Made by a program: the position numbers and the translations under genes. From NCBI RefSeq assembly GCF_044324875.1, contig NZ_CP172185.1: DNA of 64,000 bases. The stretch is one strand, 5' to 3'. This stretch comes from Escherichia coli (GTDB taxonomy: Bacteria; Pseudomonadota; Gammaproteobacteria; Enterobacterales; Enterobacteriaceae). How positions within the stretch are numbered: the stretch's first letter is position 1; every line of letters begins with the position of its first letter. The notes beneath the pieces are model-generated. The model searched no databases. It worked only from the letters and a program-made list of their open reading frames with translations, and was not told where the DNA came from. Positions 10,659-63,651 of this stretch are shown piece by piece.

Positions 10659-11471
10659 ATGGCAACAACACAACAATCTGGATTTGCACCTGCTGCATCG
10701 CCTCTCGCTTCGACCATCGTTCAGACCCCGGACGACGCGATTGCGGCGGGCTTCACCTCTATCCCCTCACAAGGGGATAACATGCCTGCTTACCATGCCA
10801 GACCAAAGCAGAGCGATGGCCCACTGCCAGTGGTCATTGTAGTGCAGGAAATTTTTGGCGTGCATGAACATATCCGCGACATTTGTCGCCGTCTGGCGCT
10901 GGAGGGGTATCTGGCTATCGCACCTGAACTTTACTTCCGCGAAGGCGATCCGAATGATTTTGCCGATATCCCCACGTTACTTAGCGGTCTGGTAGCAAAA
11001 GTGCCTGACTCGCAGGTGCTGGCCGATCTCGATCATGTCGCCAGTTGGGCTTCCCGCAACGGCGGCGATGTACATCGTTTAATGATCACCGGATTCTGCT
11101 GGGGGGGACGTATCACCTGGCTGTATGCTGCGCATAACCCGCAACTGAAAGCGGCGGTGGCATGGTACGGCAAACTGACAGGCGATAAGTCGCTGAATTC
11201 ACCGAAACAACCTGTTGATATCGCAACCGATCTTAACGCGCCGGTTCTCGGCTTATATGGTGGTCAGGATAACAGCATTCCGCAGGAGAGCGTTGAAACC
11301 ATGCGCCAGGCGCTGCGGGCTGCTAATGCGAAAGCAGAGATTATCGTCTACCCGGATGCCGGGCATGCATTCAACGCCGATTATCGCCCGAGCTATCATG
11401 CCGAATCTGCGAAAGATGGCTGGCAGCGTATGCTGGAGTGGTTTAAGCAGTATGGTGGGAAGCGGAATTAG
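10659..11471 (+). CDS. ysgA: Dienelactone hydrolase family protein YsgA
   Basis: ORF track begins at 10593; the likely start is the ATG at 10659 (MATTQQSGF...) preceded by ggaga. Alpha/beta hydrolase; conserved neighbour of udp. Confidence 0.8.
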   Translation: MATTQQSGFAPAASPLASTIVQTPDDAIAAGFTSIPSQGDNMPAYHARPKQSDGPLPVVIVVQEIFGVHEHIRDICRRLALEGYLAIAPELYFREGDPNDFADIPTLLSGLVAKVPDSQVLADLDHVASWASRNGGDVHRLMITGFCWGGRITWLYAAHNPQLKAAVAWYGKLTGDKSLNSPKQPVDIATDLNAPVLGLYGGQDNSIPQESVETMRQALRAANAKAEIIVYPDAGHAFNADYRPSYHAESAKDGWQRMLEWFKQYGGKRN

Positions 11472-11862
11472 TTTCCTCTTAGTCTATATTTGAGATGGTG
11501 AGTGAACGAGTGCGTTTTGCTGCCATCTCTGTCCCCCAAAAAATAATCAGTATGAATTGATTGGAGAGCACGACTCCGCTATTTGACCTTAAGAAAGTCG
11601 GCAAGTAATAGTCATAAGTGAGTCTCTTCACTGGCAGACACCTTAGAGATTTACCATCAACTCCCATTCTCAAACAAACATTAATTATTATCAACACATT
11701 CACATTAATTATAAATTATCTCAGACCTTCCTGATAAAAAGATATTAAAGTGAAACATTTTGTTTTTCACATTTTAGTTCATCCCTTTTAGGCGTAAATA
11801 AAGGTAAAAAATAACAATACTATTTTTCTTTCACAAAAGAATTAACAAAAGGTTTTTCAAGG

Positions 11863-12996
11863 ATGAGTGATATTATTTACCTGAACATAACCGGAGAACA
11901 ACAAGGATGTATTTCCTCTCGTTGTGGAACGAGCGCATCAATAGGTAATCGCTGGCAGATTGGCCATGAAGATGAAATCTTCGCGTTCTCGCTCTCTAAT
12001 AGTATTACGAATACAGGCAAAGGGTCACAATTGCATGGCCTTAGTTTCTGTAAATTGATTGACAAAAGCTCCCCGTTACTTATTAACGCTATTAACAATA
12101 ACGAGCAGTTGTTCATGGAGTTTGACTTCTATCGGATCAATAGATTTGGTCGATGGGAGAAATATTACAACATTCAACTTCGCGGCGCGCTCTTATCAGC
12201 AATCAATCACCTGTTTACTGAGAACAATCTGGATACAGAAACCATCACTGTCAGTTATGAATATATACTCTCCAGGCATCTGATTGCTAATACTGAATTT
12301 AGTTATTTGGCATTTCCCGATAACTACAACCGTCTGTTTATACCACGGCCAAAAACTAAAGATGATAATGGCCTCAAAACACTCAATAGTAAAGCGGTTG
12401 GCAGACTGCTTGCTGCTGGCGGCATATACAATGGGAATATCGAAGGATTCAGGGAAACAGCAAACAAGTTGGGAGGAGATGCACCTGCTGGTTACGATCA
12501 AGTTATGGATAACAAAGGGTTACTCATCGCTGGTGCTTCAATAGTTGCTGGAGTTGTTCTGGGAAGAATGAGATTCCCTGATTTGGAATCACTTGAGCAT
12601 TTCGGAGCCAGAGGAGCAGTATCAGGAAGACCATTTAATCCCGACCTTGCCGGTGGTCCAATTGAAAACCTGACGATAGATGGCGTAACAATCAACAGGG
12701 AAGGTATCGCTATTGTTGAAAAGCATATCTCCAGATTTGATCATGATCCAGCTAATGATGTAATGATTTCAAGGCTAAAGAAAATAGCAAATAAAGAATT
12801 GCTTCCTGAAAAATACGATCTGAACTACTATACTCATGAATGTCGCGAGTATCAGCGTTATTGTAATTTAGGATGGGAAACAGGTGAACCGAAAGGTTTA
12901 GATGGATATGAATTATGGAATAATGTACATACTGCAACTCTAGAAGACTTTAAAATTAAAGATACTGACTTATTTCATCCGGATGCAAAAAAATGA
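11863..12996 (+). CDS. Hcp (T6SS tube protein) fused to a C-terminal extension of unknown function; candidate Hcp-ET type VI effector
   Basis: Residues ~1-160 (MSDIIYLNITGEQQGCISSRCGTSASIGNRWQIGHEDEIFAFSL...LHGLSFCKLIDKSSPLLINAINNNEQLFMEFDFYRIN...EKYYNIQLRGALLSAI) align by eye with enterobacterial Hcp (Y-I-x-I-x-G-x-Q-G, S-I-G-N-x-x-Q-x-GHEDEI, DKSSPLL, FxFYR...E-Y-Y). Residues ~165-377 form an extra domain containing a hydrophobic stretch (LLIAGASIVAGVVLG). Visibly AT-rich; absent from the K-12 ysgA-metE interval as I recall it. Confidence 0.7.
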   Translation: MSDIIYLNITGEQQGCISSRCGTSASIGNRWQIGHEDEIFAFSLSNSITNTGKGSQLHGLSFCKLIDKSSPLLINAINNNEQLFMEFDFYRINRFGRWEKYYNIQLRGALLSAINHLFTENNLDTETITVSYEYILSRHLIANTEFSYLAFPDNYNRLFIPRPKTKDDNGLKTLNSKAVGRLLAAGGIYNGNIEGFRETANKLGGDAPAGYDQVMDNKGLLIAGASIVAGVVLGRMRFPDLESLEHFGARGAVSGRPFNPDLAGGPIENLTIDGVTINREGIAIVEKHISRFDHDPANDVMISRLKKIANKELLPEKYDLNYYTHECREYQRYCNLGWETGEPKGLDGYELWNNVHTATLEDFKIKDTDLFHPDAKK

Positions 12997-13250
12997 CGAT
13001 TACGATAGTTGAATTTAACGTGCTGAAAGTTATGGCTGAGAAAGATATTGACTGGAGCTGGATGGTGCTGGATCGTACTTTAGCTATACGAAATATTCCA
13101 GGATTTGGCAACGTAGCGAATATCGTAACAAAGCTGGTTAATCATGGGTTGGTTGATATCGTAAATGGTGAGGGCAACTCTAGACCACGCTACAGAGTTT
13201 CTCAATATGGATTGAATCTTATCAAAGAACAACAAGACAACCTCTTCTGA
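12993..13250 (+). CDS. Small protein (85 aa), candidate cognate immunity protein or small winged-helix-like protein
   Basis: ATG overlaps the TGA stop of the Hcp fusion (ATGA), implying translational coupling. No signal peptide. Paralogous to the next ORF. Confidence 0.5.
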   Translation: MTITIVEFNVLKVMAEKDIDWSWMVLDRTLAIRNIPGFGNVANIVTKLVNHGLVDIVNGEGNSRPRYRVSQYGLNLIKEQQDNLF

Positions 13251-13309
13251 TCCAGCCATTACAGGAGCATGATTTACATTGTGATCTTTCAATAAGATAC
13301 TCATCAATT

Positions 13310-13570
13310 TTGGTACAGAATATCGTGATCACTAAAAATGAACTTAACGTGCTGAACGTTATGACTGAGAAAGATATAAACTGGAACTGGATGAATCTCG
13401 ATCGCACACTATCCATAAGGCAAATTCCAGGATTCGGGAATGTTGTTAACATTGTTAACAAATTAGCTAACGAAGGTTTGGTTATTATTGAGGATAGCGG
13501 GAATAAGTCTATGCCTCACTACCACGTTAGTGAAAAGGGATACAATCTCGTGCAACGTGAGAATAAATAA
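13310..13570 (+). CDS. Small protein (86 aa), tandem paralog of the preceding ORF (second immunity candidate)
   Basis: Roughly half the residues match the upstream 85-aa ORF (NVLKVM-EKDI-W-WM-LDRTL-IR-IPGFGNV-NIV-KL-N-GLV). Start codon uncertain: the track start appears to be non-ATG. Confidence 0.45.
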   Translation: MVQNIVITKNELNVLNVMTEKDINWNWMNLDRTLSIRQIPGFGNVVNIVNKLANEGLVIIEDSGNKSMPHYHVSEKGYNLVQRENK

Positions 13571-13678
13571 CGTAGCGTTGATTACTGAACGGAATCACTC
13601 AAAACTGTGTTTTGCGAAAAAAACGATTCGGTTATTTCTGCTCCTGAAGATCAGCTTCAATCTGGCACTCATGCAAAA

Positions 13679-13698
13679 TGGCTTCCAGTGCTGGAAGC
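13679..13698 (-). terminator. Hairpin downstream of metE (putative terminator)
   Basis: Perfect 9-bp inverted repeat ggcttccag-tg-ctggaagcc immediately 3' of the metE stop; the flanking U-tract on the minus transcript is only moderate. Confidence 0.4.
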
Positions 13699-13738
13699 CA
13701 TTATCGTACTGCAATTTACAGTGACTCGTTAATATTCG

Positions 13739-16000
13739 TCATCCCCGACGCAAATTCTGCGCCGCCTGCACCATGTTCGCCAGTGCCGCGCGGGTTTCTG
13801 GCCAGCCGCGCGTTTTCAGGCCACAGTCCGGGTTGACCCACAGACGCTCTGCCGGAATGCGTTTTGCCGCTTTCTTCAGCAAGGCTTCAATCCATTCCAC
13901 GCTCGGTACGTTTGGCGAGTGAATGTCATAGACGCCAGGACCGATTTCATTTGGATAATCAAACTCTTCAAACGACTCCAGCAACTCCATGTCGGAACGC
14001 GAGGTTTCGATGGTGATGACGTCTGCGTCCAGCGCCGCAATCGAATCCATGATGTCGTTGAACTCGCAGTAACACATGTGAGTGTGGATTTGTGTGTCAT
14101 CTTTCGCCACGGCGGCGTTGATACGGAAAGCCTCCACGCCCCACTGGAGATAGGCATCCCAGTCGCCGCGACGCAGCGGTAAACCTTCGCGCAGTGCCGG
14201 TTCATCAATCTGGATGATGCCAATTCCAGCGGCTTCCAGGTCCGCCACTTCATCACGCAGCGCCAGCGCAATTTGTTTGGCGATGGTTTCACGGCTGACA
14301 TCTTCACGCGGGAACGACCAGCAGAGAATGGTCACCGGGCCGGTCAGCATCCCTTTCACCGGTTTGTCAGTCAGCGATTGCGCATACTTCGCCCACTCAA
14401 TGGTAATCGGTGCCGGGCGGCTAACGTCACCAATGACAATCGGCGGCTTCACGCAGCGGGAACCGTAGCTCTGTACCCAACCGTTTTGCGTAAAGACAAA
14501 ACCGTCGAGATGCTCGCCAAAGTATTCCACCATGTCATTACGCTCGGCCTCGCCATGCACCAGCACATCCAGACCTAAACGTTCCTGCTCAACAATGGCC
14601 TGCTTGATATGTTCCGCAATGCCCGTGCGGTAGTTGTTGGCGTCGAGATTACCCTTTTTGAAATCCAGACGCAGGGTACGAATTTCCGTGGTTTGCGGGA
14701 AGGAACCAATCGTGGTGGTCGGCCACGCGGGCAGTTTAAAACGCGCACGCTGGGCTTCAGCACGCACTTCATAGACATTCGCACGCTGACTGTCCTGAGC
14801 GGTGATCGCCGCCAGACGCTTTTCTACTGCCGGATTATGTACGCGGGTTGAGTGACGACGCGCCTGAATCGGAGCGCTCCACTCTGCCAGAGCAGCCGTG
14901 TCACCACTGTTCAGCGCATCGCGCAGCAGTGCCAGTTCATGACATTTTTGCAGGGCGAAGGCAAACCAGCTTTTCACTTCTGCATCAAGACGCGTTTCCA
15001 CGCTCAGGTCGATGGGGCTGTGCAGCAGTGAGCAGGAAGATGCCACCCACAAATCGCGTTTGCCGACAATGTCCTTAATTTGCGCATACTTCTCGGTAAG
15101 ATCGGCGCGCCAGACGTTACGACCATTGATCAGACCCGCAGACAGCAGCCAGTCAGAAGGCAGACGCTTGTGCAGTTCAGCAACGTCATCTTTACCATGT
15201 ACAAGATCGACATGCAGACCCTGAACAGGCAGCGCAGTAATCGTGTCGAGATTTGGCGTTACGCCTTCAAAATAGGTGGTCAGCAGCAGTTTCACCTGTC
15301 CCTGGAGCGCGTCGTAAGCGGGTTTGTATGCGTCCAGCCACGCCTGCGGTAGTTCCAGTACCAGCGCTGGTTCGTCGATCTGTACCCACTCAATACCGCG
15401 TTTTGCCAGTTCTGCCAGCACTTGCTGATAAATCGGAAGAATGTCGTTCAGCAGGCTCAGGCGATCAAACTGTTCACCTTTCACTTTACCCAGCCACAGG
15501 TAGGTAACCGGCCCCAGCAGCACAGGTTTCACCTTGTGGCCCAGCGCCAGCGCCTCGTCCACTTCCTCCAGCAGCTGCGTCCAGGTCAGTTTGAACTGTT
15601 GGCCTTTAACGAACTCCGGCACCATGTAGTGATAGTTGGTGTTAAACCATTTGGTCATTTCCGCTGCCGCCGCAGGTTCACCAGTCGGCGCACGTCCACG
15701 ACCAATACGGAACAGGGTGTCGATATCTACCGAACCATCTTTGTTCTGATGACGTGGCGGAACATTACCCAGCAGCAGACTGGTGGTCAGTACATGATCG
15801 TACCAGGCAAAATCGCCCACCGGCAGCAGGTCGATACCCGCCTGCTTTTGTTGATCCCAGTGACGGGCACGTAATTCACGCCCAACCGCCAGCAGTTCTT
15901 CACGCGTGGAGTTCCCCGCCCAATAACTTTCTTGCGCTTTTTTCAGCTCGCGACGCAGGCCAACGCGAGGGAAACCGAGGGTGTGATTCAATATTGTCAT
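13739..16000 (-). CDS. metE: Cobalamin-independent methionine synthase
   Basis: 753-aa ORF beginning [29 protein letters not shown]; recognised as MetE. Confidence 0.95.
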
Positions 16001-16235
16001 TTTTCTTCCTCTAATTATATGTAAATCCTATGGATTTTGAATTTAGGGAAGGCGGCAAGTTTATTCATCCCCGGGAGCTTACTGAAGTAAGTGACCGGGG
16101 TGAAGAAACGCAGCCAACGCACCATAAATTTAAAAGACGAAGGATTTTAGCCGTCCAGATGTTTACACATCCATAATTGGCGGTTACTGTATATTCCTCA
16201 AGCGCAAATTATTCATGCCGAAGTGAAGGACTTTC
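16001..16235. promoter_or_regulatory. metE-metR divergent promoter/operator region
   Basis: Intergenic region between divergently transcribed metE and metR; MetR and MetJ are known to act here. Individual operator sites not resolved by eye. Confidence 0.5.
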
Positions 16236-25764: not shown

Positions 25765-25858
25765 AAAATAAATATATTCTGAAAAAATATGCCGACTCTT
25801 GCATGAGAGTGGGCATATTGCCATGCTGACAGGAGACTCACACAAGGATGTAAAATTT

Positions 25859-26239
25859 ATGTTGCGTATATTTATCCCAACATCTAACGGTAAGATTTCC
25901 AGACGCCGTTATATATTTTCATTTATTTTAATAAATTTCATTTTTGCCTTTCTTATTATCTTTTTTAACGATGGGGACGCAGGTTTTCTTGTTATTGTCT
26001 CTACCATCGCACTCCATTATCTCGTCATCAACATAAATTGCCAACGACTCCGTGATAGTGGTTTCATATATATAAAAACTTATGTTTTTGGTACATTAGC
26101 AGTATATATCATCTCTATCATCACAATGATAGCCGAACATTTTGATTGTTCAGGCAATGGTTCGATGATTTTTTTGATTTGTTATTTTTCCACTTTCAGT
26201 ATGCTAATGCTTGCACCTACTGATTCATCAAAACAATAG
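25859..26239 (+). CDS. yigG: Small inner membrane protein YigG
   Basis: ORF track begins at 25799; internal start [34 protein letters not shown] gives ~126 aa. AT-rich; conserved position after rarD. Confidence 0.6.
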
Positions 26240-26252
26240 TTATGGAGTATTT

Positions 26253-26633
26253 ATGAGTAAGGAGTATATGAACGATGGTTCATTAAGTGAAAAATGGAAA
26301 TACCGATTTAACTTTTATGATCAACATGGCTTTCCTGGATTCTGGGGGGCAACACCAGAATATAAAGCAGCATTTAAAACATTAAAAGTAAGACAACGAT
26401 TAACTATTCAAATGAATTTCATTGCTTTCTTCTGTTCCTGGATCTATTTATTTGTTCTGGGATTATGGAAAAAAGCAATTATAGTTCTATTACTTGGCAT
26501 TCTATCTCTATTTGTTGGTGCACTAATTGGCGTTAACATTCTGGGAATTGCCGTAGCAGCCTATGTTGCTGTTAACACGAACAAATGGTTTTATGAGAAA
26601 GAGGTAAAAGGGTTAAATACCTGGAGCCTTTGA
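26253..26633 (+). CDS. yigF: Small inner membrane protein YigF
   Basis: ORF track begins at 26211; internal start MSKEYMNDGSLSEKWKYRF gives ~126 aa with TM segments. Confidence 0.6.
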   Translation: MSKEYMNDGSLSEKWKYRFNFYDQHGFPGFWGATPEYKAAFKTLKVRQRLTIQMNFIAFFCSWIYLFVLGLWKKAIIVLLLGILSLFVGALIGVNILGIAVAAYVAVNTNKWFYEKEVKGLNTWSL

Positions 26634-26640
26634 ATAACAG

Positions 26641-26677
26641 GTGGCTTAGCCAGGCTAAGCCACCGCTCTCGTTTTTT
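26641..26677 (+). terminator. Rho-independent terminator after yigF (possibly bidirectional with corA)
   Basis: Stem gtggcttag / ctaagccac with loop ccagg, followed by cgctctcgtttttt. Confidence 0.5.
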
Positions 26678-35492: not shown

Positions 35493-35668
35493 CTTTATGA
35501 AGTCTGAAAAGTGAGGAAATGCTGCGAGTATAACGCTTACACGTGGCGATTTATGTTTTGCTGGTAGTTTCGTGATCAACACCTCGTGCCAGGATGGCTT
35601 TATGCACTATCGCAATGTGGTTTGTTTGTTGTCTTGTTCGTTGTTTTTATCGTCGGCATGGGGCTTTT
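35493..35668 (+). repeat. Leader-module repeat copy 1 (5' UTR plus truncated signal-peptide ORF remnant)
   Basis: ctttatgaagtctgaaaagtgaggaaatgctgcgag...tagtttcgtgatcaacacctcgtgccaggatggctttatgcactatcgcaatgtggtttgtttgttgtcttgttcgttgtttttatcgtcggcatgggg is near-identical to the 5' ends of the genes at ~36578 and ~39461, but runs into a stop after ~22 codons (…SSAWGF*). Confidence 0.6.
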
Positions 35669-35761
35669 AAAAGAGTGGCGCACCATGCAATTTCGTTGTC
35701 TGACCTTAGTCGCCAGTGACATACAGCTTTGCCAACCTGGTGATAAGAGGGAAAAAATCTG

Positions 35762-36316
35762 ATGGGGCTATTTACCCAACTGGAAAAATTTGACCAAAAG
35801 CTTACGCGCGGTTATGCCCGCTGGGGGCGCTGGGTATGGCGGACGTTAATTGTCGTTCCAATACTGGTCGTATTGTGGAATATAGGGCAGGCAGTATGGG
35901 GAGGACCAAGAGGTGGAGTGATTCTGGAAATCCACAGTGAAATTGACCGCCCGATACTGGGATTCAGTGTTAACGGCGTGGCGGGCGCGAATGCTTTTGC
36001 GAATGGTGGCGGTTCAATCACCTGTTGCGGTGATGTCAGTGGGGATACGGCAGAGGTTATCTGGACATTAAGTACTACTCGTACACAGTATAATGCTGGA
36101 ATGCGTCTGGAGAAACGCAATATGACGTTACCTCTCCCAAAAAGAGAATGGGGAGAAAATTATCTGCACGTGCATTTTATGCCTGGCGATAAAGTGTTGC
36201 TGGGGTGGAGTAAAGATTCTTTTTCTCCGTATGAAGATCTTCACAACGGGGGGTACAAGACCCGCGTTCGGCAGGATGTGAAAGATAAACTTTATGGCAC
36301 AGGAAAAATGAATTGA
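35762..36316 (+). CDS. Hypothetical membrane-anchored protein (184 aa)
   Basis: ORF with a predicted N-terminal TM/signal-anchor (WVWRTLIVVPILVVLWNIGQAVWG) and a Gly-rich GGGSITCCGD motif; preceded by a plausible RBS (agaggg). Function unknown. Confidence 0.45.
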   Translation: MGLFTQLEKFDQKLTRGYARWGRWVWRTLIVVPILVVLWNIGQAVWGGPRGGVILEIHSEIDRPILGFSVNGVAGANAFANGGGSITCCGDVSGDTAEVIWTLSTTRTQYNAGMRLEKRNMTLPLPKREWGENYLHVHFMPGDKVLLGWSKDSFSPYEDLHNGGYKTRVRQDVKDKLYGTGKMN

Positions 36317-36577
36317 TAGATTTCTATAAAAATCACGTTCGGCAGAAAGCGTAATAATGTGGCGAATGTTAGATACCCGTGGTGGAACCTGGGTACAACT
36401 CGTGAAAGACAATAAAGAAGGCAACGGGGGGCGGAATCCCACCTTGCCTCCCTTCCAGGGGTCAATCCGGAATATTTTTATGCTATTAGCCGTACTATGG
36501 GGCAGTTCCGGGATTGTATTTATATCGTGAATGAAAACATCACCTTTATTCCAGCAACTATCAGAAAATAGCGATGA

Positions 36578-36750
36578 CCTTTATGGATTCTGAAAAGTGA
36601 CGATTTGCTGCGAGAGTTACGCTTACTTGTGAGGATTTATGTTCTGCTGGTAGTTTCGTGATCGGCACCTCACGCCAGGATGGCTTTATGCACTTTCGCA
36701 ATGTGGTTTGTTTGTTGTCTTGTTCGTTGTTCTTATCGCCTGCCTGGGGA
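36578..36750 (+). repeat. Leader-module repeat copy 2 (intact; forms the 5' UTR and signal peptide of the 490-aa gene)
   Basis: cctttatggattctgaaaagtgacgatttgctgcgagagttacgcttacttgtgaggatttatgttctgctggtagtttcgtgatcggcacctcacgccaggatggctttatgcactttcgc...; direct repeat of copy 1. Confidence 0.6.
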
Positions 36751-38130
36751 TGTAAGCTTTCATCTGTGGATCCCAATGAGTATCAGCAACAGGGAAAAGG
36801 CGTGGTGTACCTGCGCCCTAATCAAAACACCAATCTTTCGCTACCGAACGTGAATTACAAGCGCCTGCGTCGGTTGGCGAATTTGTTAATTGACCCAGCG
36901 ACACTGGAAGATTGGGAGGAAATACCGCCGTTAACCGATCTGTCTACTGATTATGATGTGAGGGGCGCAAATGCCTGGTATCCTCATTACTCCTGGCATA
37001 GCGATGGTCGCTATATTATTTACGCTGGCAAGATAGTGCAAAATCCTGCGGGTGCACCGCCGGTTGACGTCACGTCATTCAAGGCTTGGGGCGATTTTGC
37101 CGCTGATAAAAATAGCCTCTATTTCAGAGGCGAACGCACGGATGACAATGGTGGTGACAAGCCTTTAGATAGCAAAACACTGCATCAGATGAATTTACCG
37201 CCGCCATGGGAACCTGACGTCCTCGGGCTGATATTGCGTGATGCTAACTTCCTGTATATCAACGGGCATCGTATTGCTGAGACCAATAGTTTCCGCGTGC
37301 TGGCGCAAAAGTCCTGGGATAAGCACGGAAAATTTTCCATGAAGTTTAGCTGCATTCGCAAACCATTCGGCCCCTGGGATACGCTGGCTCGTACACAGAC
37401 GAAGATTATGCTCAACGGCGAACAACTGGATGCCGACCCGGATACCTTCACCGTTGTGCGCTGGATACCTGAAGCATTAATAAGCTGGCGAGATAAAAAC
37501 GGCTTTCACCGAAAGGTACTGGATCAATATGCCCTGGACAGCAATGAGGAATATAGCTGCGGTAGTTTCAATGTAAAGGAACACCGCGTCACCTGGCGTA
37601 GTAGCTTCCCGGGTAAGGGAGCAGAATGCCAACAAGAAGAGATTCCCGGCCTCGATCCTGAACAGTTTCACCCAATTAGCGATGCTGTCGCGCAATATCA
37701 GGACAAGCTGTACGTCATCGAAACAACGCCATTTGACGAGCTCAAGCTGAATATTGTTACGCTTGATGACCCGAAACTGATTATTAATAAGCGCTTCAAC
37801 GCCGGGAAGCGTCACGGTTACTTGCTCACAAGAAAGGGAGACGAGTTTGGGGATTCTGGTTTACAGGTGTTTGAATCCGCCGGGCCGCTCATTTTATTTG
37901 ATAACCACATCCCCAGCGAACGGGAAGCGCATCAGGTTAGCAGCAACCCTTATATCCAAAAATGGTTAGCCCGCGACGACAAATATGTTTATCGCTTCGA
38001 TGGCATGCAGCTCTGGCGCTATCACACCGCAGATCCCCGAGCCGTGCGCGTCGTGAACGATCAACTCGATGACAAAATTAACGGTGATGGCGAGTTTATA
38101 CCCACTCCGCGCGATGAGGCTAAAAAATGA
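36658..38130 (+). CDS. Secreted repeat protein, paralog A (DKNYY-like motifs; possible lipoprotein)
   Basis: 490-aa ORF; N-terminus M(I/H)...FRNVVCLLSCSLFLSPAWGC looks like a signal peptide ending in Cys. Recurrent motifs KNSLYFRGERTDDNGG, NFLYINGHR, DKLYVIETTPF and DDKYVYRFDG resemble the DKNYY family. Start may be the ATG at ~36688. Confidence 0.6.
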   Translation: MIGTSRQDGFMHFRNVVCLLSCSLFLSPAWGCKLSSVDPNEYQQQGKGVVYLRPNQNTNLSLPNVNYKRLRRLANLLIDPATLEDWEEIPPLTDLSTDYDVRGANAWYPHYSWHSDGRYIIYAGKIVQNPAGAPPVDVTSFKAWGDFAADKNSLYFRGERTDDNGGDKPLDSKTLHQMNLPPPWEPDVLGLILRDANFLYINGHRIAETNSFRVLAQKSWDKHGKFSMKFSCIRKPFGPWDTLARTQTKIMLNGEQLDADPDTFTVVRWIPEALISWRDKNGFHRKVLDQYALDSNEEYSCGSFNVKEHRVTWRSSFPGKGAECQQEEIPGLDPEQFHPISDAVAQYQDKLYVIETTPFDELKLNIVTLDDPKLIINKRFNAGKRHGYLLTRKGDEFGDSGLQVFESAGPLILFDNHIPSEREAHQVSSNPYIQKWLARDDKYVYRFDGMQLWRYHTADPRAVRVVNDQLDDKINGDGEFIPTPRDEAKK

Positions 38131-39437
38131 AAGTGATGAAAAAAAGTATCTCACTGGCGCTCATCCTGTTGGGGTACACGGTGGCAATTCCGGCCGTCCA
38201 GGCTGAAGGGTACGAATACTACTCTAACCAGGGAGCCCTGGTTTACGGTTCAAACTTCGGGGGACAAAAGAAAATCATTGCCAAGTTTACGGGAATTAAC
38301 AGACGCGATTTGTACCCTGTGGAAAATATCTCTGGCGAGCAGGAACGATATATTATCGAAGATGAAGTCACCACAATTAAAGAGGAGTACCACTGGATAA
38401 CGGACGGTCACGTCATTCTCTGGCGAGGGAAAATCGTGAGTAATCCTCCCGGTACGCCAATGGTCGATGTTGCCAGCTTTAAGGCTCTGGGCCGCTTCGC
38501 CGTCGATAAATACAGTCTCTATTTTGACGGTCAGCGCACCGAAAGCAATAGCGGTGCTTCGAAGGTGGACCTGGCAACCCTAAAAGCTATCGAAGATAAC
38601 AGCAGCACGCTGGTTGACCGACATAACCTTTATTTATTGGGACGCAGGCAGGCCAGTAGCGACGATTTCAGCGTACTACAAAGTAAATTGTGGGGGGATA
38701 TCGAGCGGTTCCGCCCACGCAATGAAGGGGCTACCTCCCGCGACCTGCTTATTCGTCATCGCCAGGATGTGTTTCTCAATGGTCAGCGCATTGCAGACGT
38801 TGATGCTGACACCTTTCACATCATTCGATGGATCCCCAATTCATTATTGGTCTACCGCGACAAACATGGTGAGCACCGTTACGCCTATGGCAACCCGGCC
38901 GGAAAAATGGCAACGACCGATGATGCGAATTCGTTTGAAATCGGTGAAAAAACCGTCCGCTGGCGCAGGCAACTCGCGCGGGATGACGCCTGGCCCACGC
39001 AACTCTCGTGGGATGTCATATGGGGGGCCTGGCAGGATATTCCCAATGTTGATCCGGAACAGTTCCATCTGATCACTGACCGCATCGCGCAGTATCAGGA
39101 TCGTCTGTATATCATCAAACTGTCGCCAGTTGGCGAAGACCAGCTTAACGTTATCACCCTGGATACCCCTGATTTAGTGGTTGATCACGTCTTCAATGGT
39201 GGGAAAAAGCACATTTATATTATCAAGGACAGAGCGTGGGTGCAGGATGTTCATGTGATTGCTACCCACGGTCCACTCACCATGGCTGAGAGTTTCGCCT
39301 GGGACGATCGCTATGTATATGCCTGGCGGGGCCAGCGACCTTCCAGAACTGAATCGCCATGTCCGGAGCAAACCGTTGAGCAGGATGATGGCATAGTCAT
39401 TAAGACCGAAGCATCAGAGTGCCACCGCACGCCGTAA
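38127..39437 (+). CDS. Secreted repeat protein, paralog B (DKNYY-like motifs; Sec signal peptide)
   Basis: 436-aa ORF whose ATG overlaps the stop of paralog A (ATGA). Classical signal peptide MKVMKKSISLALILLGYTVAIPAVQA; motifs KYSLYFDGQRTESNSG, HNLYLLGRR, DRLYIIKLSPVGEDQLNVITLD and DDRYVYAWRGQ; C-terminus ...KTEASECHRTP. Confidence 0.6.
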   Translation: MKVMKKSISLALILLGYTVAIPAVQAEGYEYYSNQGALVYGSNFGGQKKIIAKFTGINRRDLYPVENISGEQERYIIEDEVTTIKEEYHWITDGHVILWRGKIVSNPPGTPMVDVASFKALGRFAVDKYSLYFDGQRTESNSGASKVDLATLKAIEDNSSTLVDRHNLYLLGRRQASSDDFSVLQSKLWGDIERFRPRNEGATSRDLLIRHRQDVFLNGQRIADVDADTFHIIRWIPNSLLVYRDKHGEHRYAYGNPAGKMATTDDANSFEIGEKTVRWRRQLARDDAWPTQLSWDVIWGAWQDIPNVDPEQFHLITDRIAQYQDRLYIIKLSPVGEDQLNVITLDTPDLVVDHVFNGGKKHIYIIKDRAWVQDVHVIATHGPLTMAESFAWDDRYVYAWRGQRPSRTESPCPEQTVEQDDGIVIKTEASECHRTP

Positions 39438-39460
39438 AATGGGTCATTATTTTTAACGGG

Positions 39461-39555
39461 TAGTTTCATGATCAACACCTCGCGCCAGGATGGCTTTATG
39501 CACTATCGCAATGTGGTTTGTTTGTTGTCTTGTTCATTGTTTTTATCGTCGGCAT
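39461..39555 (+). repeat. Leader-module repeat copy 3 (partial; 5' end of the 685-aa gene)
   Basis: tagtttcatgatcaacacctcgcgccaggatggctttatgcactatcgcaatgtggtttgtttgttgtcttgttcattgtttttatcgtcggcatgggg matches copies 1 and 2. Confidence 0.6.
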
Positions 39556-41525
39556 GGGGATGTCGGCTTTCCGCGCCTGAACATAATATTTACCAGAAAC
39601 AGGGAAAAGGCGTGGTATACCTGCGCCCTTATAAAGAAACAAATCTTTCTCTTCCTGACGTGAATTACAAAAGTTTGCGCCGTTTACCCAATTTATTAAT
39701 AGACCCGACAACACTAGACGAATGGGATAAAGAACCGCCTCTGACTGATTTGACAACCGACTACCTCTATGAGGGCGCACAGGCCTGGTATCCTCATTAT
39801 TCCTGGCATAGCGATGGTCGCAATATCCTCTACGCGGGTGAAGTTGTGCAAAACCCTCCCGGCACACCTCCCGTCGATGTCGCCTCGTTCAAGGCATGGG
39901 GTGATTTTGCCGCAGATAAACACAGTCTCTATTTTGAAGGCAAGCGCACCGATGACAATGGCGGAGAAAATAGTCTAGATATCAAAACGCTGCATCAGGT
40001 GAAATTCCGTTCCCCCTGGAAACCTGACTTACTGGGGCTGATATTACGTGACGCTAATTTCTTGTATATCAATGGGCATCGCCTCGCTGACCCCGAGAGT
40101 TTCCGTGTGCTGGCGCAAAAGTCCTGGGATCGGCGAGGAAAGTTTTCCGCCGAGTTTAACCCCTGCGTTGCCGTACCATTTGGCCCCTGGGATACGTTAG
40201 CCCGTACACGGACCAAAATCATAATCAATGGCGAACAGCTTACAGCCGACCCAGAGACATTTACTGTCGTGCGCTGGATGCCCAGTTCGTTATTAACCTG
40301 GCGTGATAAAAACGGGCTGCAGCGTAAAGTGCTGAATCAGGGAAATCTGGACAAAGATAGGGCAAATAGCTGTGCAACGTTCAATTTACAGGAACACTTT
40401 GTTTCATGGCGCAAAGGGCCAGAATGTCAGCAAGAAGTCCTACCCGGCCTCGATCCAGAACAATTTCACCCTCTTAGTAATACCGTTGCTCAGTATCAGG
40501 ACAAGCTGTACACCATCAAAAAAACGGAATTTGGCGAAAATAGGCTAGATATCGTCACACTGGATAATCCTGGTTTGGTGATAGATAAACGCTTTAACGC
40601 GGGAAGAACTCACGGCTATTTATTGACCAAATTACCAGCTGATGGTGAAGAAGAAGATGGCCTCCAGGTATTCGAGTCTTCCGGGCCGCTTATCCTGATG
40701 GATTATCGTGTTCCTGACGAGCATGAGGCTCACCTTAGCGATAGCCCCCATTACAAGAAATGGTATGCACACGACGATCGTTATGTTTACGCATTCGATG
40801 GCTCACAGCTTTGGCGCTACCCAACTCCCAATACCAAAGCCGTGCGGGTGAAATGGAAAACCAAAGATTCAGGATATGGCTATTGGGCAAACTACCGTAG
40901 TGGTGAGCTTGACGGCAGACTTCTTGAGGATGGTGCGTTTATTCCAACGGGAATCCCCTATAACTCATCCGTTAACATTGCTCAATATTCTGATGGCGAA
41001 GGCTCTTTTCTCGTCGGCGAAACCGATGTTAGCTGGCGTAAGCTTCGCTCTACAGACCAGCAATGGAGTCAATGGGAGAAACTCCCCGATATTGACCCGA
41101 AAGCATTTCATCCCATCACCGATCGTGTCGCGCAGTACAAAAATCATCTGTACATTGCGAAATTGTCTCCTTTTGGTGAAGACACCCTGGAGATAATAAC
41201 GCTCGACTCTTCTGCACCTTTCCTGAAACAACGAATTAACGCCGGGAAAGGCCATGGTTACTTTATGCGCTCTTCCCGTTTACGCGATGATATTCAAATT
41301 TTTGCTATTGATGGACCATTGAAAACCACCGAACGTTTCGCTTATGACAATCGCTATGTTTATACCTGGATCGGTAGCCAACTTTATCGAACCGCATCGC
41401 CCTGTCCGGCCAGGACACGTAATCTGGATCAGAACATGTTTTCATCCAATGATGACATCATCATCCTGAAGACGGAGGAAGAGTGCCACAAAACACCAGA
41501 CATTGAGCAAACTTTGAAGCCCTGA
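39468..41525 (+). CDS. Secreted repeat protein, paralog C (mosaic: A-like body plus B-like C-terminal module)
   Basis: 685-aa ORF. The first ~440 aa are collinear with paralog A (e.g. YPHYSWHSDGR, FKAWGDFAADK, PWDTLARTRTKI); the last ~230 aa resemble the C-terminal half of paralog B (DRVAQYKNHLYIAKLSPFGEDTLEIITLD, DNRYVYTWIGSQ, ...KTEEECHKTP). Confidence 0.6.
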   Translation: MINTSRQDGFMHYRNVVCLLSCSLFLSSAWGCRLSAPEHNIYQKQGKGVVYLRPYKETNLSLPDVNYKSLRRLPNLLIDPTTLDEWDKEPPLTDLTTDYLYEGAQAWYPHYSWHSDGRNILYAGEVVQNPPGTPPVDVASFKAWGDFAADKHSLYFEGKRTDDNGGENSLDIKTLHQVKFRSPWKPDLLGLILRDANFLYINGHRLADPESFRVLAQKSWDRRGKFSAEFNPCVAVPFGPWDTLARTRTKIIINGEQLTADPETFTVVRWMPSSLLTWRDKNGLQRKVLNQGNLDKDRANSCATFNLQEHFVSWRKGPECQQEVLPGLDPEQFHPLSNTVAQYQDKLYTIKKTEFGENRLDIVTLDNPGLVIDKRFNAGRTHGYLLTKLPADGEEEDGLQVFESSGPLILMDYRVPDEHEAHLSDSPHYKKWYAHDDRYVYAFDGSQLWRYPTPNTKAVRVKWKTKDSGYGYWANYRSGELDGRLLEDGAFIPTGIPYNSSVNIAQYSDGEGSFLVGETDVSWRKLRSTDQQWSQWEKLPDIDPKAFHPITDRVAQYKNHLYIAKLSPFGEDTLEIITLDSSAPFLKQRINAGKGHGYFMRSSRLRDDIQIFAIDGPLKTTERFAYDNRYVYTWIGSQLYRTASPCPARTRNLDQNMFSSNDDIIILKTEEECHKTPDIEQTLKP

Positions 41526-47767: not shown

Positions 47768-48964
47768 ATGCTAAAAGTGTTATTGCTCTTTGTTTTGCTG
47801 ATTGCGGGGATAGTGGTTGGCCCGATGATTGCCGGACACCAGGGTTACGTGCTGATCCAGACCGACAACTACAATATTGAAACCAGCGTCACTGGCCTGG
47901 CGATTATTTTGATTCTGGCAATGGTAGTGCTGTTTGCCATTGAGTGGCTACTGCGGCGGATCTTCCGCACAGGCACACACACCCGTGGGTGGTTTGTCGG
48001 ACGTAAGCGTCGCCGTGCCCGTAAGCAGACCGAACAGGCGCTGCTGAAACTGGCGGAAGGCGATTATCAGCAAGTTGAAAAGCTGATGGCGAAAAATGCC
48101 GATCACGCTGAACAACCGGTGGTGAACTATCTGCTGGCTGCCGAAGCCGCGCAACAACGCGGTGATGAAGCACGCGCCAACCAACATCTGGAACGCGCAG
48201 CGGAGCTGGCCGGCAACGACACAATTCCGGTAGAAATCACCCGTGTACGTCTGCAACTGGCCCGTAATGAAAACCATGCAGCACGTCACGGCGTTGATAA
48301 GCTGCTGGAAGTTACGCCACGCCATCCGGAAGTATTACGTCTGGCGGAACAGGCGTATATCCGCACTGGTGCATGGAGTTCGCTGCTGGATATCATCCCA
48401 TCAATGGCAAAAGCCCACGTTGGCGATGAAGAGCATCGTGCAATGCTGGAACAACAGGCATGGATTGGCCTGATGGATCAGGCGCGTGCCGATAACGGTA
48501 GCGAAGGTTTGCGTAACTGGTGGAAAAACCAAAGCCGGAAAACGCGTCATCAGGTGGCGTTACAGGTGGCAATGGCGGAACATCTTATTGAATGTGACGA
48601 TCATGATACTGCCCAGCAAATTATCATCGACGGCCTGAAACGCCAGTATGACGATCGCCTGCTGCTGCCGATCCCGCGTCTGAAAACCAATAACCCGGAA
48701 CAGCTGGAAAAAGTGCTGCGCCAACAGATCAAAAACGTGGGCGATCGCCCGTTGTTGTGGAGCACACTGGGTCAGTCGCTGATGAAGCACGGCGAATGGC
48801 AGGAAGCATCGCTCGCCTTCCGCGCGGCGCTGAAACAACGTCCGGACGCCTACGATTACGCATGGCTTGCCGACGCGCTGGACAGACTGCACAAGCCGGA
48901 AGAAGCCGCAGCGATGCGTCGCGATGGCTTGATGTTAACGTTGCAGAACAACCCGCCACAGTAA
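47768..48964 (+). CDS. hemY: HemY (TPR-containing membrane protein, protoheme IX biogenesis)
   Basis: 398-aa ORF with N-terminal TM helices; conserved position. Confidence 0.9.
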   Translation: MLKVLLLFVLLIAGIVVGPMIAGHQGYVLIQTDNYNIETSVTGLAIILILAMVVLFAIEWLLRRIFRTGTHTRGWFVGRKRRRARKQTEQALLKLAEGDYQQVEKLMAKNADHAEQPVVNYLLAAEAAQQRGDEARANQHLERAAELAGNDTIPVEITRVRLQLARNENHAARHGVDKLLEVTPRHPEVLRLAEQAYIRTGAWSSLLDIIPSMAKAHVGDEEHRAMLEQQAWIGLMDQARADNGSEGLRNWWKNQSRKTRHQVALQVAMAEHLIECDDHDTAQQIIIDGLKRQYDDRLLLPIPRLKTNNPEQLEKVLRQQIKNVGDRPLLWSTLGQSLMKHGEWQEASLAFRAALKQRPDAYDYAWLADALDRLHKPEEAAAMRRDGLMLTLQNNPPQ

Positions 48965-48967
48965 TCT

Positions 48968-48998
48968 ATATCGCCTCGTTCAGAGGCGATATTTTTTT
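48968..48998 (+). terminator. Rho-independent terminator of the hemCDXY operon
   Basis: 10-bp stem atatcgcctc / gaggcgatat with loop gttca, followed by tttttt. Confidence 0.65.
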
Positions 48999-49004
48999 AC
49001 CAGG

Positions 49005-49604
49005 ATGTCAAAATTGCGCACGCCGTCCCGCTATCTTTTTCGCTTGCCATCGCATGAAATTACTCCTTTTCGGGCAACGCTCTTTTTAATCTTGTTGATA
49101 TGTGCCGCTCTGGCTGGCGTAAGTTGGCTGATTATTTCCTTTGTGCGTACGGGCAATACATTCATCTTCTGGTTAACACTTTTTATTGGGTATCTGATAG
49201 CTGCGGCGAAGCAGGAAAAAATCAAGCTCCTCAAGAAGTACCGAATCATGGCAGATAAACGTCGGGGACGCTCCATTTGCCAGTTCGCCCGCGAATTTGA
49301 CACCTACACCGTAGATACATGGGTGATTCGTGCGGTGTGGGATACCTTGCAAGGAAACGGTTATATCGATTACCCACTGCCACTGAAAGCCGATGATATA
49401 CTGGACGATGATCTGGATTTGGTGAGCGACGCAGTCGAGTTAGAAGAGCTGGTTGAAGATACCGCTGCTCGTTGCGGGCGCGATCTATGCGGAATAGAAG
49501 AGAATCCGTTTCTTCCCATCGTCACGGTAGGCTCTCTTGTAAGAGTGTTAAACGCGCAACCGATGACCCAGGAGCGACGTAACCAGTTCTTTATCCGGTC
49601 ATAA
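49005..49604 (+). CDS. Hypothetical protein (up to 199 aa; N-terminal TM segments, acidic C-terminal region); start uncertain
   Basis: Long ORF between the hemY terminator and glmZ. Predicted TM helices (ATLFLILLICAALAGVSWLIISF, FIFWLTLFIGYLIAAA) and an acidic tract (DDILDDDLDLVSDAVELEELVEDTAA). The first ATG abuts the terminator T-run, so a later start (e.g. ATG ~49248) is possible. Not recalled as annotated in K-12. Confidence 0.3.
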   Translation: MSKLRTPSRYLFRLPSHEITPFRATLFLILLICAALAGVSWLIISFVRTGNTFIFWLTLFIGYLIAAAKQEKIKLLKKYRIMADKRRGRSICQFAREFDTYTVDTWVIRAVWDTLQGNGYIDYPLPLKADDILDDDLDLVSDAVELEELVEDTAARCGRDLCGIEENPFLPIVTVGSLVRVLNAQPMTQERRNQFFIRS

Positions 49605-61031: not shown

Positions 61032-61706
61032 TCACCTGTATAACCAGTACGCGGTGCTTTCTACATTCGCACCACTTTGTATGTATCGTTTTAGCGCGGC
61101 GGTGTTGCCCATTTGGGTCGCCACCCGCAAAGTTGTTTTACCGCGAGCATACGCCCAGTTTAGCGCCGTTTGCATCAGCTCAGCACCTGCACCTCGTCCA
61201 GCCAGCAGGCCAATTCGCGCATCTGTCGCATTGAGTTCCCGTAAAGAGACATAGCCGCGAATATCGCCGGACGCCGCACGTAAAATCAGACATTGATGAT
61301 CAAAGGTGCCGCGCACGGCATTTTCAATCCACTGTGCATAAAAGCGTCCGCTGGCGTCAGGCGCATACCACGGCGCACGAAAACGGCTTTGCGCAAATGC
61401 GGCGCTGGCTAACTGACGTAATGCGGGAATATCGGTCTCTTGTGCCACTACAGCACCACTATCACTGACATTGTTCACGGGTAGCGCCAAATCAACTTCA
61501 CCTTCTACCAGGGAGAATCCCAGCTGTTGCAGGGCATCCAGTTCACCCGTATTTGATGCCGCAATTTTGGCCTGTACCCGTGACCACGGCGCTAAGGCGT
61601 CTGACGTCAGGAGCGGTGCTTCAGGCGTGATGCGCACGATGGCGCTGTTAACACCAAAGAAGGCGTTTTCCCAGGTTAGTGGCTCAATACTGGCGCGGAC
61701 GGGCAC
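61032..61706 (-). CDS. wecD: dTDP-fucosamine acetyltransferase (GNAT)
   Basis: 224-aa ORF with a GNAT-like C-terminal half; overlaps the 3' end of rffH by ~23 bp. Confidence 0.8.
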
Positions 61707-62565
61707 GGAGTAACTCCAGCAGATATTGGCCGTAGCCAGTTTTCGCTAATGAACTGGCAGCACGCTTCACACCCTCGTCATCGAGCCAGCCGTTACGCCA
61801 GGCGATCTCTTCCAGGCAGGCAATCTTAAAGCCCTGGCGTTTTTCCACCGTCTGTACAAAGGTGCTGGCTTCAATCAGGCTGTCGTGAGTGCCAGTGTCC
61901 AGCCAGGCAAATCCGCGCCCGAGCAGTTCAACGGTCAGGTTGCCCGCCTCGAGGTACATCTGGTTGATGGAGGTAATCTCCAGTTCACCACGCTCCGACG
62001 GCTTCACCTGCTTTGCGTACTCCACGACTTTACTGTCGTAGAAATAAAGTCCGGTCACCGCCCAGTTTGACTTCGGCTGTTTTGGCTTTTCTTCCAGCGA
62101 GATCGCACGGAAATTGTCGTCAAACTCCACCACGCCAAAGCGTTCCGGATCCATTACCTGATAGCCAAATACCGTCGCCCCTTCCGTGCGCGCCGCAACA
62201 TGACGCAGCTTCGGACTGAAGCCCTGACCGAAGAAAATGTTATCGCCCAGCACCAGACAAGAAGGTTCACCGTTGAGGAAGGTTTCACCGATGATAAAGG
62301 CCTGCGCCAGACCGTCCGGGCTGGGCTGTTCGGCATATTCCAGCTGGATACCGAACTCACTACCATCGCCCAGCAGGCGCTGGAAATAACCTTTATCTTC
62401 CGGCGTAGTGATGATGAGAATTTCGCGGATACCGGCCAGCATCAGCACCGACAGCGGATAGTAAATCATTGGCTTATCGTAAATCGGCAACAGTTGCTTC
62501 GATACGCCGCGCGTAATCGGATGCAATCGGGTGCCGGAACCGCCCGCCAGGATAATACCTTTCAT
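61684..62565 (-). CDS. rffH: Glucose-1-phosphate thymidylyltransferase
   Basis: 293-aa ORF beginning [38 protein letters not shown]; RmlA family. Confidence 0.9.
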
Positions 62566-62583
62566 GTTTGCCTCCGCTGAAAA

Positions 62584-63651
62584 TTAGCCTTTCAGACCTA
62601 AACGCTCGCCCTGATAGCTGCCGTCCTGCACCTGCTTCCACCAGCTTTCATTAGCCAGATACCACTGCACCGTTTTACGCATTCCACTTTCAAAGGTTTC
62701 CTGCGGCAGCCAGCCAAGTTCATGGGCAATTTTCGAAGCATCAATGGCATAACGCAGATCATGCCCCGGACGGTCAGCGACAAAGGTGATCAGGTCATGA
62801 TAGTGCGCCACGCCGTGCGGCTTGTTTGGAGCCAGTTCTTCCAGCAGCTCGCAAATGGTTTCCACAACATCGAGATTCTTACGCTCGTTGTGACCACCAA
62901 TATTATAGGTTTCACCGACTTTCCCGGTGGTCGCCACGCAATACAGCGCGCGGGCGTGATCTTCCACATACAGCCAGTCACGGATTTGCTGCCCGTTGCC
63001 ATATACCGGCAGCGGTTTACCCGCCAGCGCGTTGAGGATCATCAGCGGGATCAGTTTTTCCGGAAAGTGGTAAGGACCGTAGTTATTCGAGCAGTTGGTG
63101 ATAAGCGTCGGCAGACCATAGGTCCGCAGCCAGGCGCGCACCAGGTGGTCGCTGCTGGCTTTTGAAGCGGAATAGGGGCTGCTCGGCGCATACGGCGTGG
63201 TTTCGGTGAAGAAATCATCCGTCGAGTGCAGGTCACCATATACTTCGTCAGTGGAGATGTGATGAAAACGGAACGCTGATTTTTTATCTTCCGTCAGCGC
63301 ATTCCAGTAAGCCCGCGCCGCTTCAAGCAATGTATAAGTCCCGACAATGTTGGTTTCAATAAACGCTGCCGGGCCGTCAATAGAACGGTCAACATGGCTT
63401 TCGGCTGCCAGATGCATGACACAGTCTGGCTGATGCTCAGTGAATACGCGCGCCAGTTCTGCCCGATCGCAGATATCAACTTTCTCAAAGGCAAAGCGCT
63501 CGCTTTGCGCGACCGGTGCCAGCGACATCAGATTTCCGGCGTAGGTCAGCTTATCGACCACTACCACCGCGTCGCTCGTTTCGTTGATGATATAACGCAC
63601 CAGCGCCGAGCCAATAAACCCGGCACCACCTGTTATCAGAATCTTTCTCAT
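62584..63651 (-). CDS. rffG: dTDP-glucose 4,6-dehydratase
   Basis: ORF track begins at 63660; known start [20 protein letters not shown] (Rossmann GxxGxxG) gives 355 aa. Confidence 0.9.

Follow-up and report, generated by a model that had tools for sequence, protein, structure and literature searches.

A cassette-borne AT-rich module upstream of an orphan Hcp-toxin gene in Escherichia coli, a probable nucleation site for H-NS silencing

Some Escherichia coli chromosomes carry, between ysgA and metE, a gene in which Hcp is fused to a putative C-terminal toxin domain, and the DNA directly upstream of this gene raises the question of how its expression is controlled. We analysed a 64,000-nucleotide stretch of one such genome (contig NZ_CP172185.1; hereafter the window), in which positions 11472-11862 form the whole gap between ysgA, whose stop codon ends at 11471, and the Hcp fusion, whose ATG stands at 11863; both bordering genes are also annotated in a RefSeq genome that is 99-99.7% identical. 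A first-pass annotation had described this gap as an AT-rich leader of ~390 bp, typical of horizontally acquired DNA that is bound and silenced by H-NS. We favour a reading in which the cassette carries its own AT-rich promoter/operator module and in which silencing of the entire islet by H-NS/StpA most likely nucleates there; silencing of the cassette by H-NS is, in our assessment, likely but unproven. The islet and its AT-rich core have these coordinates.

11463..13742, no strand assigned: islet between ysgA and metE, horizontally acquired according to genome comparison; 2,280 bp, 38.5% GC (guanine plus cytosine)
11673..11862, plus strand: AT-rich upstream module (core) of the Hcp-toxin cassette; 190 bp, 23.7% GC; presumed promoter/operator

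The window segment is E. coli chromosome with the order rmuC-udp-ysgA / islet / metE-metR, and the gap under study is the left edge of the islet. In an alignment with the K-12-type empty site, the flanks match up to 11462 and again from 13743, and the islet stands in place of 55 bp of the convergent ysgA/metE junction. Because the islet is absent from K-12-type genomes and is present in full (at least 80% of a 3.6-kb query) in only 374 of 5,426 complete E. coli genomes, of which 5,425 match its flanks, this comparison establishes its DNA as horizontally acquired, in agreement with the earlier description.

The composition of the gap is unusual, and unevenly so. Its GC content is 33.0%, compared with 51.6% for the window, where 0.75% of 391-bp segments are equally low, and it ranks second lowest among 35 intergenic regions (those of at least 50 bp in the 99-99.7%-identical genome; mean 44.0%, standard deviation 6.8). 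The 5' part (11472-11670) has 41.7% GC, which is ordinary for intergenic DNA, while the 3' part (11671-11862) has 24.0%, the lowest of any 192-bp stretch in all 64 kb and about three standard deviations under the intergenic mean; the genes flanking the islet have 54-56%. Within the core, TpA steps occur at 10.1 per 100 nt versus 4.4 for the window (2.3 times the window mean), and 15 A/T tracts cover 71 of its 190 bp. Low GC combined with many TpA steps is the composition that H-NS prefers (PMC8476142, PMC9765446). The string quoted in the first-pass annotation lies at ~11681-11721, and the low GC, the A/T tracts and the H-NS-type composition that it reported are all borne out in the core. Since the composition is extreme only in the 3' 190 bp, however, the AT-richness that it ascribed to ~390 bp is a real but partly confirmed observation. 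Sigma-70-like sites in 11300-13900, counted on both strands, number 15 against 7.1 +/- 2.9 expected, a roughly twofold excess. A surplus of this sort is commonly seen in foreign DNA rich in A+T, where spurious transcription readily arises within genes.

We calibrated composition against binding with the per-gene H-NS chromatin immunoprecipitation sequencing (ChIP-seq) values published for strain CFT073 (PMC9765446, Data set S1A), using 224 genes, 32 of them bound, from the first 290 kb of NC_004431.1 (1-200 kb and 250-290 kb). Below 42% GC, 15 of 17 genes were bound, the two exceptions being micro-ORFs (open reading frames) of 45 and 66 nt, and all 14 genes of at least 200 nt in this class were bound; at 50% GC or more the count was 2 of 157. 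GC content and H-NS signal were correlated with a Spearman rho of -0.70, and for the three cassette genes, with 37.8-39.9% GC, a logistic fit predicted a P(bound) of 0.84-0.93. Two loci of CFT073 offer closer parallels. Strong binding does not need a long islet, as c0078-c0080 (1.3 kb) had ratios of immunoprecipitate to input (IP/input) of 55-74, and the other orphan Hcp-toxin cassette of that strain, c0132-c0137, with 30% GC upstream, had an IP/input of 19-52 together with a weak RNA polymerase signal. These data give silencing by H-NS good, though indirect, support.

In 846 E. coli genomes the cassette comes with the core, at an identity of at least 95% in 385 and ~72% in 461 (B2), the homology with the B2 version beginning at ~11674. 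Homologous leaders are found in two Citrobacter species (27-31% GC), and a homologous core stands upstream of a 5'-truncated copy of the cassette in Salmonella bongori; in the loci fetched from other genera, the chromosomal contexts of the cassette differ. These comparisons show the AT-rich core to be part of the cassette, with which it passes from lineage to lineage and from genus to genus. The leader itself exists in divergent alleles. Between the window and CFT073, identity is 67-73% over 11673-11872 and 96-100% from 11873 onward, and both E. coli alleles have 23-24% GC despite their divergence. The abruptness of this step at the start codon suggests a recombination breakpoint there, with replacement of the whole leader.

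An alignment of six leader sequences from three genera (E. coli, two Citrobacter species and S. bongori) revealed three conserved blocks, listed here with the other elements of the core.

11678..11712, plus strand: two copies of ACATTAATTAT, 24 nt apart, overlapping weak Fur-box-like matches (12/19)
11722..11733, plus strand: conserved block A, CAGAnnTTnCCT; phylogenetic footprint in E. coli, Citrobacter and S. bongori
11746..11765, plus strand: conserved block B, TAAAGTGAAACATTTTGTTT, with the imperfect palindrome AAAGTG-AAA-CATTTT; candidate operator or -35 region
11790..11802, plus strand: conserved block C, AGGCGTAAATAAA; phylogenetic footprint
11847..11852, plus strand: putative ribosome-binding site AAAAGG, 10 nt ahead of the ATG, read from the sequence

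Blocks A-C are near-invariant across the six leaders, although the E. coli alleles are only ~70% identical overall, and the distance from B to C is constant in length among the orthologous leaders. A search with position weight matrices found no strong sigma-70 promoter conserved in position across the orthologues; the sole recurrent promoter-like match was a weak GTGAAA-N16/17-TATACG/TTTAGT with block B as its -35 element. The blocks suggest an additional, specific regulator. In S. bongori, ~70-80 codons are missing from the start of the Hcp domain while blocks B and C still stand directly upstream, and the locus has the look of a cassette in decay.

In the mechanism that we propose, module 11673-11862 is a probable H-NS nucleation site and would carry the weak promoter of the cassette. 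A filament of H-NS/StpA would coat the module and the downstream genes of 38-40% GC and hold their transcription down under laboratory conditions of culture. Because H-NS also represses T6SS-2 and hcp operons of E. coli (the hcp2B operon and T6SS-2 of avian pathogenic E. coli, APEC, and the T6SS, or type VI secretion system, of enterohaemorrhagic E. coli, EHEC; PMC5874247, PMC13141884), shared silencing would couple the unlinked effector to its secretion machine. Loss of H-NS alone would probably not suffice for relief, which may also depend on a factor that recognises the conserved blocks at 11722-11802.

Several observations weigh against silencing by H-NS or are neutral towards it. The high-affinity motif TCGATAAATT, reportedly defined by Lang et al. 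in 2007 with the consensus tCG(t/a)T(a/t)AATT, had no match of at least 8/10 in 11673-11862, where 0.7-2.7 were expected. High-affinity nucleation motifs are common at H-NS sites, though not obligatory. Helical phasing of AA/TT, taken as a proxy for the curvature that the first-pass annotation had suggested computing, was not significant: the power at periods of 9.5-11.5 bp was 1.29, against 0.77 +/- 0.39 in shuffles (P = 0.10). The flanking core genes are unbound in chromatin affinity precipitation sequencing (ChAP-seq) supplements for SE15, SE11 and K-12, which list core genes only. Moreover, deletion of hns alone is insufficient for full T6SS activation in Salmonella and in EHEC (PMC12994826, PMC13141884), and the blocks kept across genera point to sequence-specific control that H-NS alone does not explain.

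Those same blocks are an argument for control mainly by a dedicated transcription factor, with blocks A-C as its operator/promoter (bound, for example, by a LacI/Cra-like dimer on AAAGTG-AAA-CATTTT) and the AT-richness either incidental or serving for background silencing only. Near-invariance over three genera and fixed B-to-C spacing would fit such control, as would the lack of a strong, positionally conserved sigma-70 promoter if the cassette depended on an activator. Block B agrees with the Cra consensus RSTGAAWCSNTHHW (from PMC5829826) at 12-13 of 14 positions and in the same column in five of the six aligned leaders. However, matches of at least 12/14 occur 172 times in the window, about one per 740 nt of strand scanned, and because matches that good are common by chance the Cra match is not significant and only its conservation is informative. 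Scans with the CRP and IHF consensus sequences gave no matches, and the ops element GGCGGTAGnnTG, on which counter-silencing by RfaH would depend, had none with at most one mismatch in the intergenic region or the islet, the nearest ops-like match lying at 11153-11164 within the ysgA coding sequence. A dedicated factor is also compatible with H-NS, since counter-silencing would combine both, and we consider it doubtful that such a factor is the main control. A bolder proposal, to which we would give a slim chance, is that the 190-bp module is a portable regulatory cartridge. Its blocks, with their fixed 34-nt gap between B and C, would be the operator for a conserved chromosomal regulator that counter-silences H-NS and activates orphan Hcp-toxin cassettes wherever they land. 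Recombination at the start codon would swap entire leader alleles, and this would explain why ~70% identity abuts 96-100%.

It is quite improbable that the gap is an ordinary AT-rich intergenic promoter region free of silencing, served by a constitutive weak promoter or by read-through from ysgA. Intergenic DNA of E. coli is generally AT-rich (mean 44% GC here), and ysgA is co-directional and lacks a canonical intrinsic terminator; against this, the core lies ~3 standard deviations under that mean, its composition belongs to the class in which 14 of 14 sampled CFT073 genes of at least 200 nt were H-NS-bound, and ysgA is followed by a hairpin, with 390 nt of untranslated RNA that would be exposed to Rho. 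Repression by Fur with induction under iron limitation, as for sci1 of enteroaggregative E. coli (EAEC) and hcp1 of APEC, has a precedent in the documented Fur control of E. coli T6SS-1 (PMC5874247), and the core contains five overlapping 12/19 matches to the Fur box, clustered at 11674-11698, where 0.95 were expected (P ~0.03). These matches are weak, AT-rich DNA yields such matches readily, and their positions, like those of the ACATTAATTAT copies, are not kept in the leader alleles of CFT073, Citrobacter and S. bongori, which makes Fur a very improbable repressor of the cassette. Control after transcription start by a long structured 5' leader RNA (a riboswitch, an attenuator or a target of small RNAs) could be thought of in view of the length of the intergenic region (391 bp) and of the term leader used for it in the first-pass annotation. 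We regard this as scarcely credible: an Rfam scan of 11300-13900 returned no matches at E <= 1, RNAalifold of five orthologous leaders gave -2.2 kcal/mol with no compensatory pairs, and the upstream half of the region is not conserved with the cassette. The ~390-bp transcribed leader found no support, and neither did the relief of repression by a specific signal that the first-pass annotation had expected. Its interpretation as a whole is partly supported: horizontal acquisition and composition are shown, and binding of H-NS is strongly inferred.

The genes that the module would control are arranged as follows.

11863..12996, plus strand: Hcp (TssD)-toxin fusion, 377 aa; Hcp domain (aa 1-147), linker and C-terminal domain; annotated as TssD in RefSeq
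12993..13250, plus strand: putative immunity gene 1, 85 aa; start overlaps the toxin stop codon; coding sequence (CDS) in RefSeq
13325..13570, plus strand: putative immunity gene 2, 81 aa; paralogue of gene 1 with 77% nucleotide identity

The Hcp domain was recognised by TIGR03344 (2.8e-36, aa 1-147) and PF05638 (3e-14), and its best match among Hcp chains of the Protein Data Bank (PDB) was 6a2v (8.5e-15). The C-terminal extension has 230 aa, the last 135 of which have a confidently predicted fold (pLDDT 91.6), and the C-terminal domain matched no Pfam family, PDB sequence or solved fold. Its homologues are widespread in Enterobacterales and are joined to varied N-terminal domains, while relatives sharing the linker alone bear other toxin domains, such as colicin D; the C-terminal domain recombines in the manner of a polymorphic toxin. 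The labels 'HNH endonuclease' and 'colicin' that NCBI attaches to homologues were not adopted for the toxin domain. Directly 3' of the toxin gene, an immunity homologue of 81-90 aa is found in E. coli, Citrobacter, S. bongori, Pantoea and Cronobacter, and by this synteny the small downstream ORFs are putative cognate immunity genes. An Hcp domain, a C-terminal extension and an always-following small ORF together make this a toxin/immunity architecture of the Hcp-ET kind, and by its gene content the cassette is an orphan Hcp-ET-type polymorphic toxin/immunity unit that encodes a putative specialised T6SS effector. No T6SS cluster was found in the 64-kb window, to which the search was confined.

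A variant of the cassette occurs in the O145:H28 strain RM12761, compared here with window positions 12673-13372. From the leader through the Hcp domain and the linker it shares 94-100% identity with our sequence, falling to 70-84% at the toxin end; another sequence takes the place of immunity gene 1, whereas immunity gene 2 persists at 99% identity. Judged by this alignment, the pattern is a classic C-terminal toxin/immunity displacement, and immunity gene 2 of RM12761 is an apparent orphan immunity gene.

Hcp-ET effectors, in which Hcp carries a C-terminal extension toxin, fall into five clans according to the summaries of Ma et al. 2017 given in PMC6730261 and PMC6099711. The present cassette resembles members such as the Hcp-ET3-4 cassette of CFT073 c0132 / UTI89_C0121 in its N-terminal Hcp, its C-terminal extension, its downstream immunity genes (including a duplicate) and its orphan position, and the CFT073 example is H-NS-bound; it differs in a C-terminal domain that matches nothing in Pfam, the PDB sequences or the solved folds. 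The Hcp-ET3/4-type cassette of CFT073 occupies NC_004431.1 127216-130670, between aroP and pdhR, and contains tssD, three bacteriocin-immunity genes and toxin fragments. With the hcp2B-vgrG2-xmtU/V unit and T6SS-2 of APEC and the T6SS of EHEC (PMC5874247, PMC13141884), the cassette shares the organisation of an hcp-led effector/immunity unit in E. coli. Those systems are silent in rich medium, and through a common repressor the effector unit is regulated jointly with the secretion apparatus. However, their place is in or next to a T6SS cluster, and they combine plain Hcp with separate effectors, whereas here an isolated three-gene cassette has its toxin fused to Hcp.

As a whole, the islet resembles H-NS-silenced xenogeneic DNA in being lineage-specific, TpA-rich and 13 GC points under the genome, with a surplus of promoter-like sites and a composition in the class that was bound throughout among the longer CFT073 genes sampled. 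Unlike such DNA it lacks the Lang-type high-affinity motif, and its extreme AT core spans only 190 bp and holds blocks conserved across genera. The same chromosomal site, between metE and ysgA, harbours the 16-kb tkt1 genomic island of B2 extraintestinal pathogenic E. coli (PMC3349570; GR 29 in PMC12928451). The cassette forms the metE-proximal end of that island in CFT073 and MS20659, with CDS and immunity genes 96-100% identical. In contrast to the tkt1 island, the window has only the 2.3-kb cassette with a private 210-bp junction block, the hcp fusion is intact here and a pseudogene in CFT073 and MS20659, and the leaders are 67-73% identical.

The remaining features belong to the edges of the islet.

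11463..11672, no strand assigned: left junction block, 210 bp, ~42% GC; the 5' half of the gap under study
11492..11529, plus strand: hairpin GAGATGG...CCATCTC just 3' of the ysgA stop, without a U-run
13677..13702, no strand assigned: perfect hairpin with 12-bp arms between the cassette and the metE 3' end, probably a bidirectional terminator

The left junction block rewrites the final 9 nt of ysgA. It is present in 387 of the 5,426 genomes, in short-islet strains only, and lies at the ysgA junction unless moved by an IS3 rearrangement. We found no relation between it and the region upstream of the cassette in the B2/tkt1 island, and neither the loci fetched from other genera nor the rest of the window contained a homologue. 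In strain JCH767, an IS3-family insertion sequence (IS) element is inserted 27 bp into the block, at the position equivalent to window 11498, and the cassette adjoins a gene for a YopB/SseC-type translocon of a type III secretion system. This location beside the translocon gene instead of ysgA indicates an IS-mediated rearrangement. The hairpin after ysgA (99-nt fold, minimum free energy -24.4 kcal/mol, z = -2.2) was not called in a terminator scan, which found no canonical intrinsic terminator after ysgA, and it has a possible role in ending ysgA transcription. Short ORFs inside the gap cross the homology boundaries and were judged spurious. Neither flanking direct repeats nor att-like sites beyond chance were found at the islet.

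Elsewhere in the window, a comparison with ECE204, which is otherwise 98-99% identical, showed non-colinear segments at 16001-16146, 25848-26676, 35663-41505, 48963-49600 and 61705-63650. Among them are a different low-GC islet (33-41% GC) adjoining rarD, ~5.8 kb of added DNA, and ~118 added bp in the metE-metR intergenic region.

Specialists would not be surprised by a small islet whose AT-rich promoter region is probably bound by H-NS, a situation that is ordinary for foreign DNA in E. coli; more unusual are a toxin domain without a recognisable fold, the swap of leader alleles and the conserved blocks. The blocks provide a concrete handle on what relieves silencing, a question left open by the APEC and EHEC papers. 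If H-NS does silence the cassette, standard competition assays would miss the Hcp-toxin, and the cassette would share its regulation with an H-NS-repressed T6SS to which it is not linked; this would matter for cataloguing active T6SS effectors in clinical E. coli.
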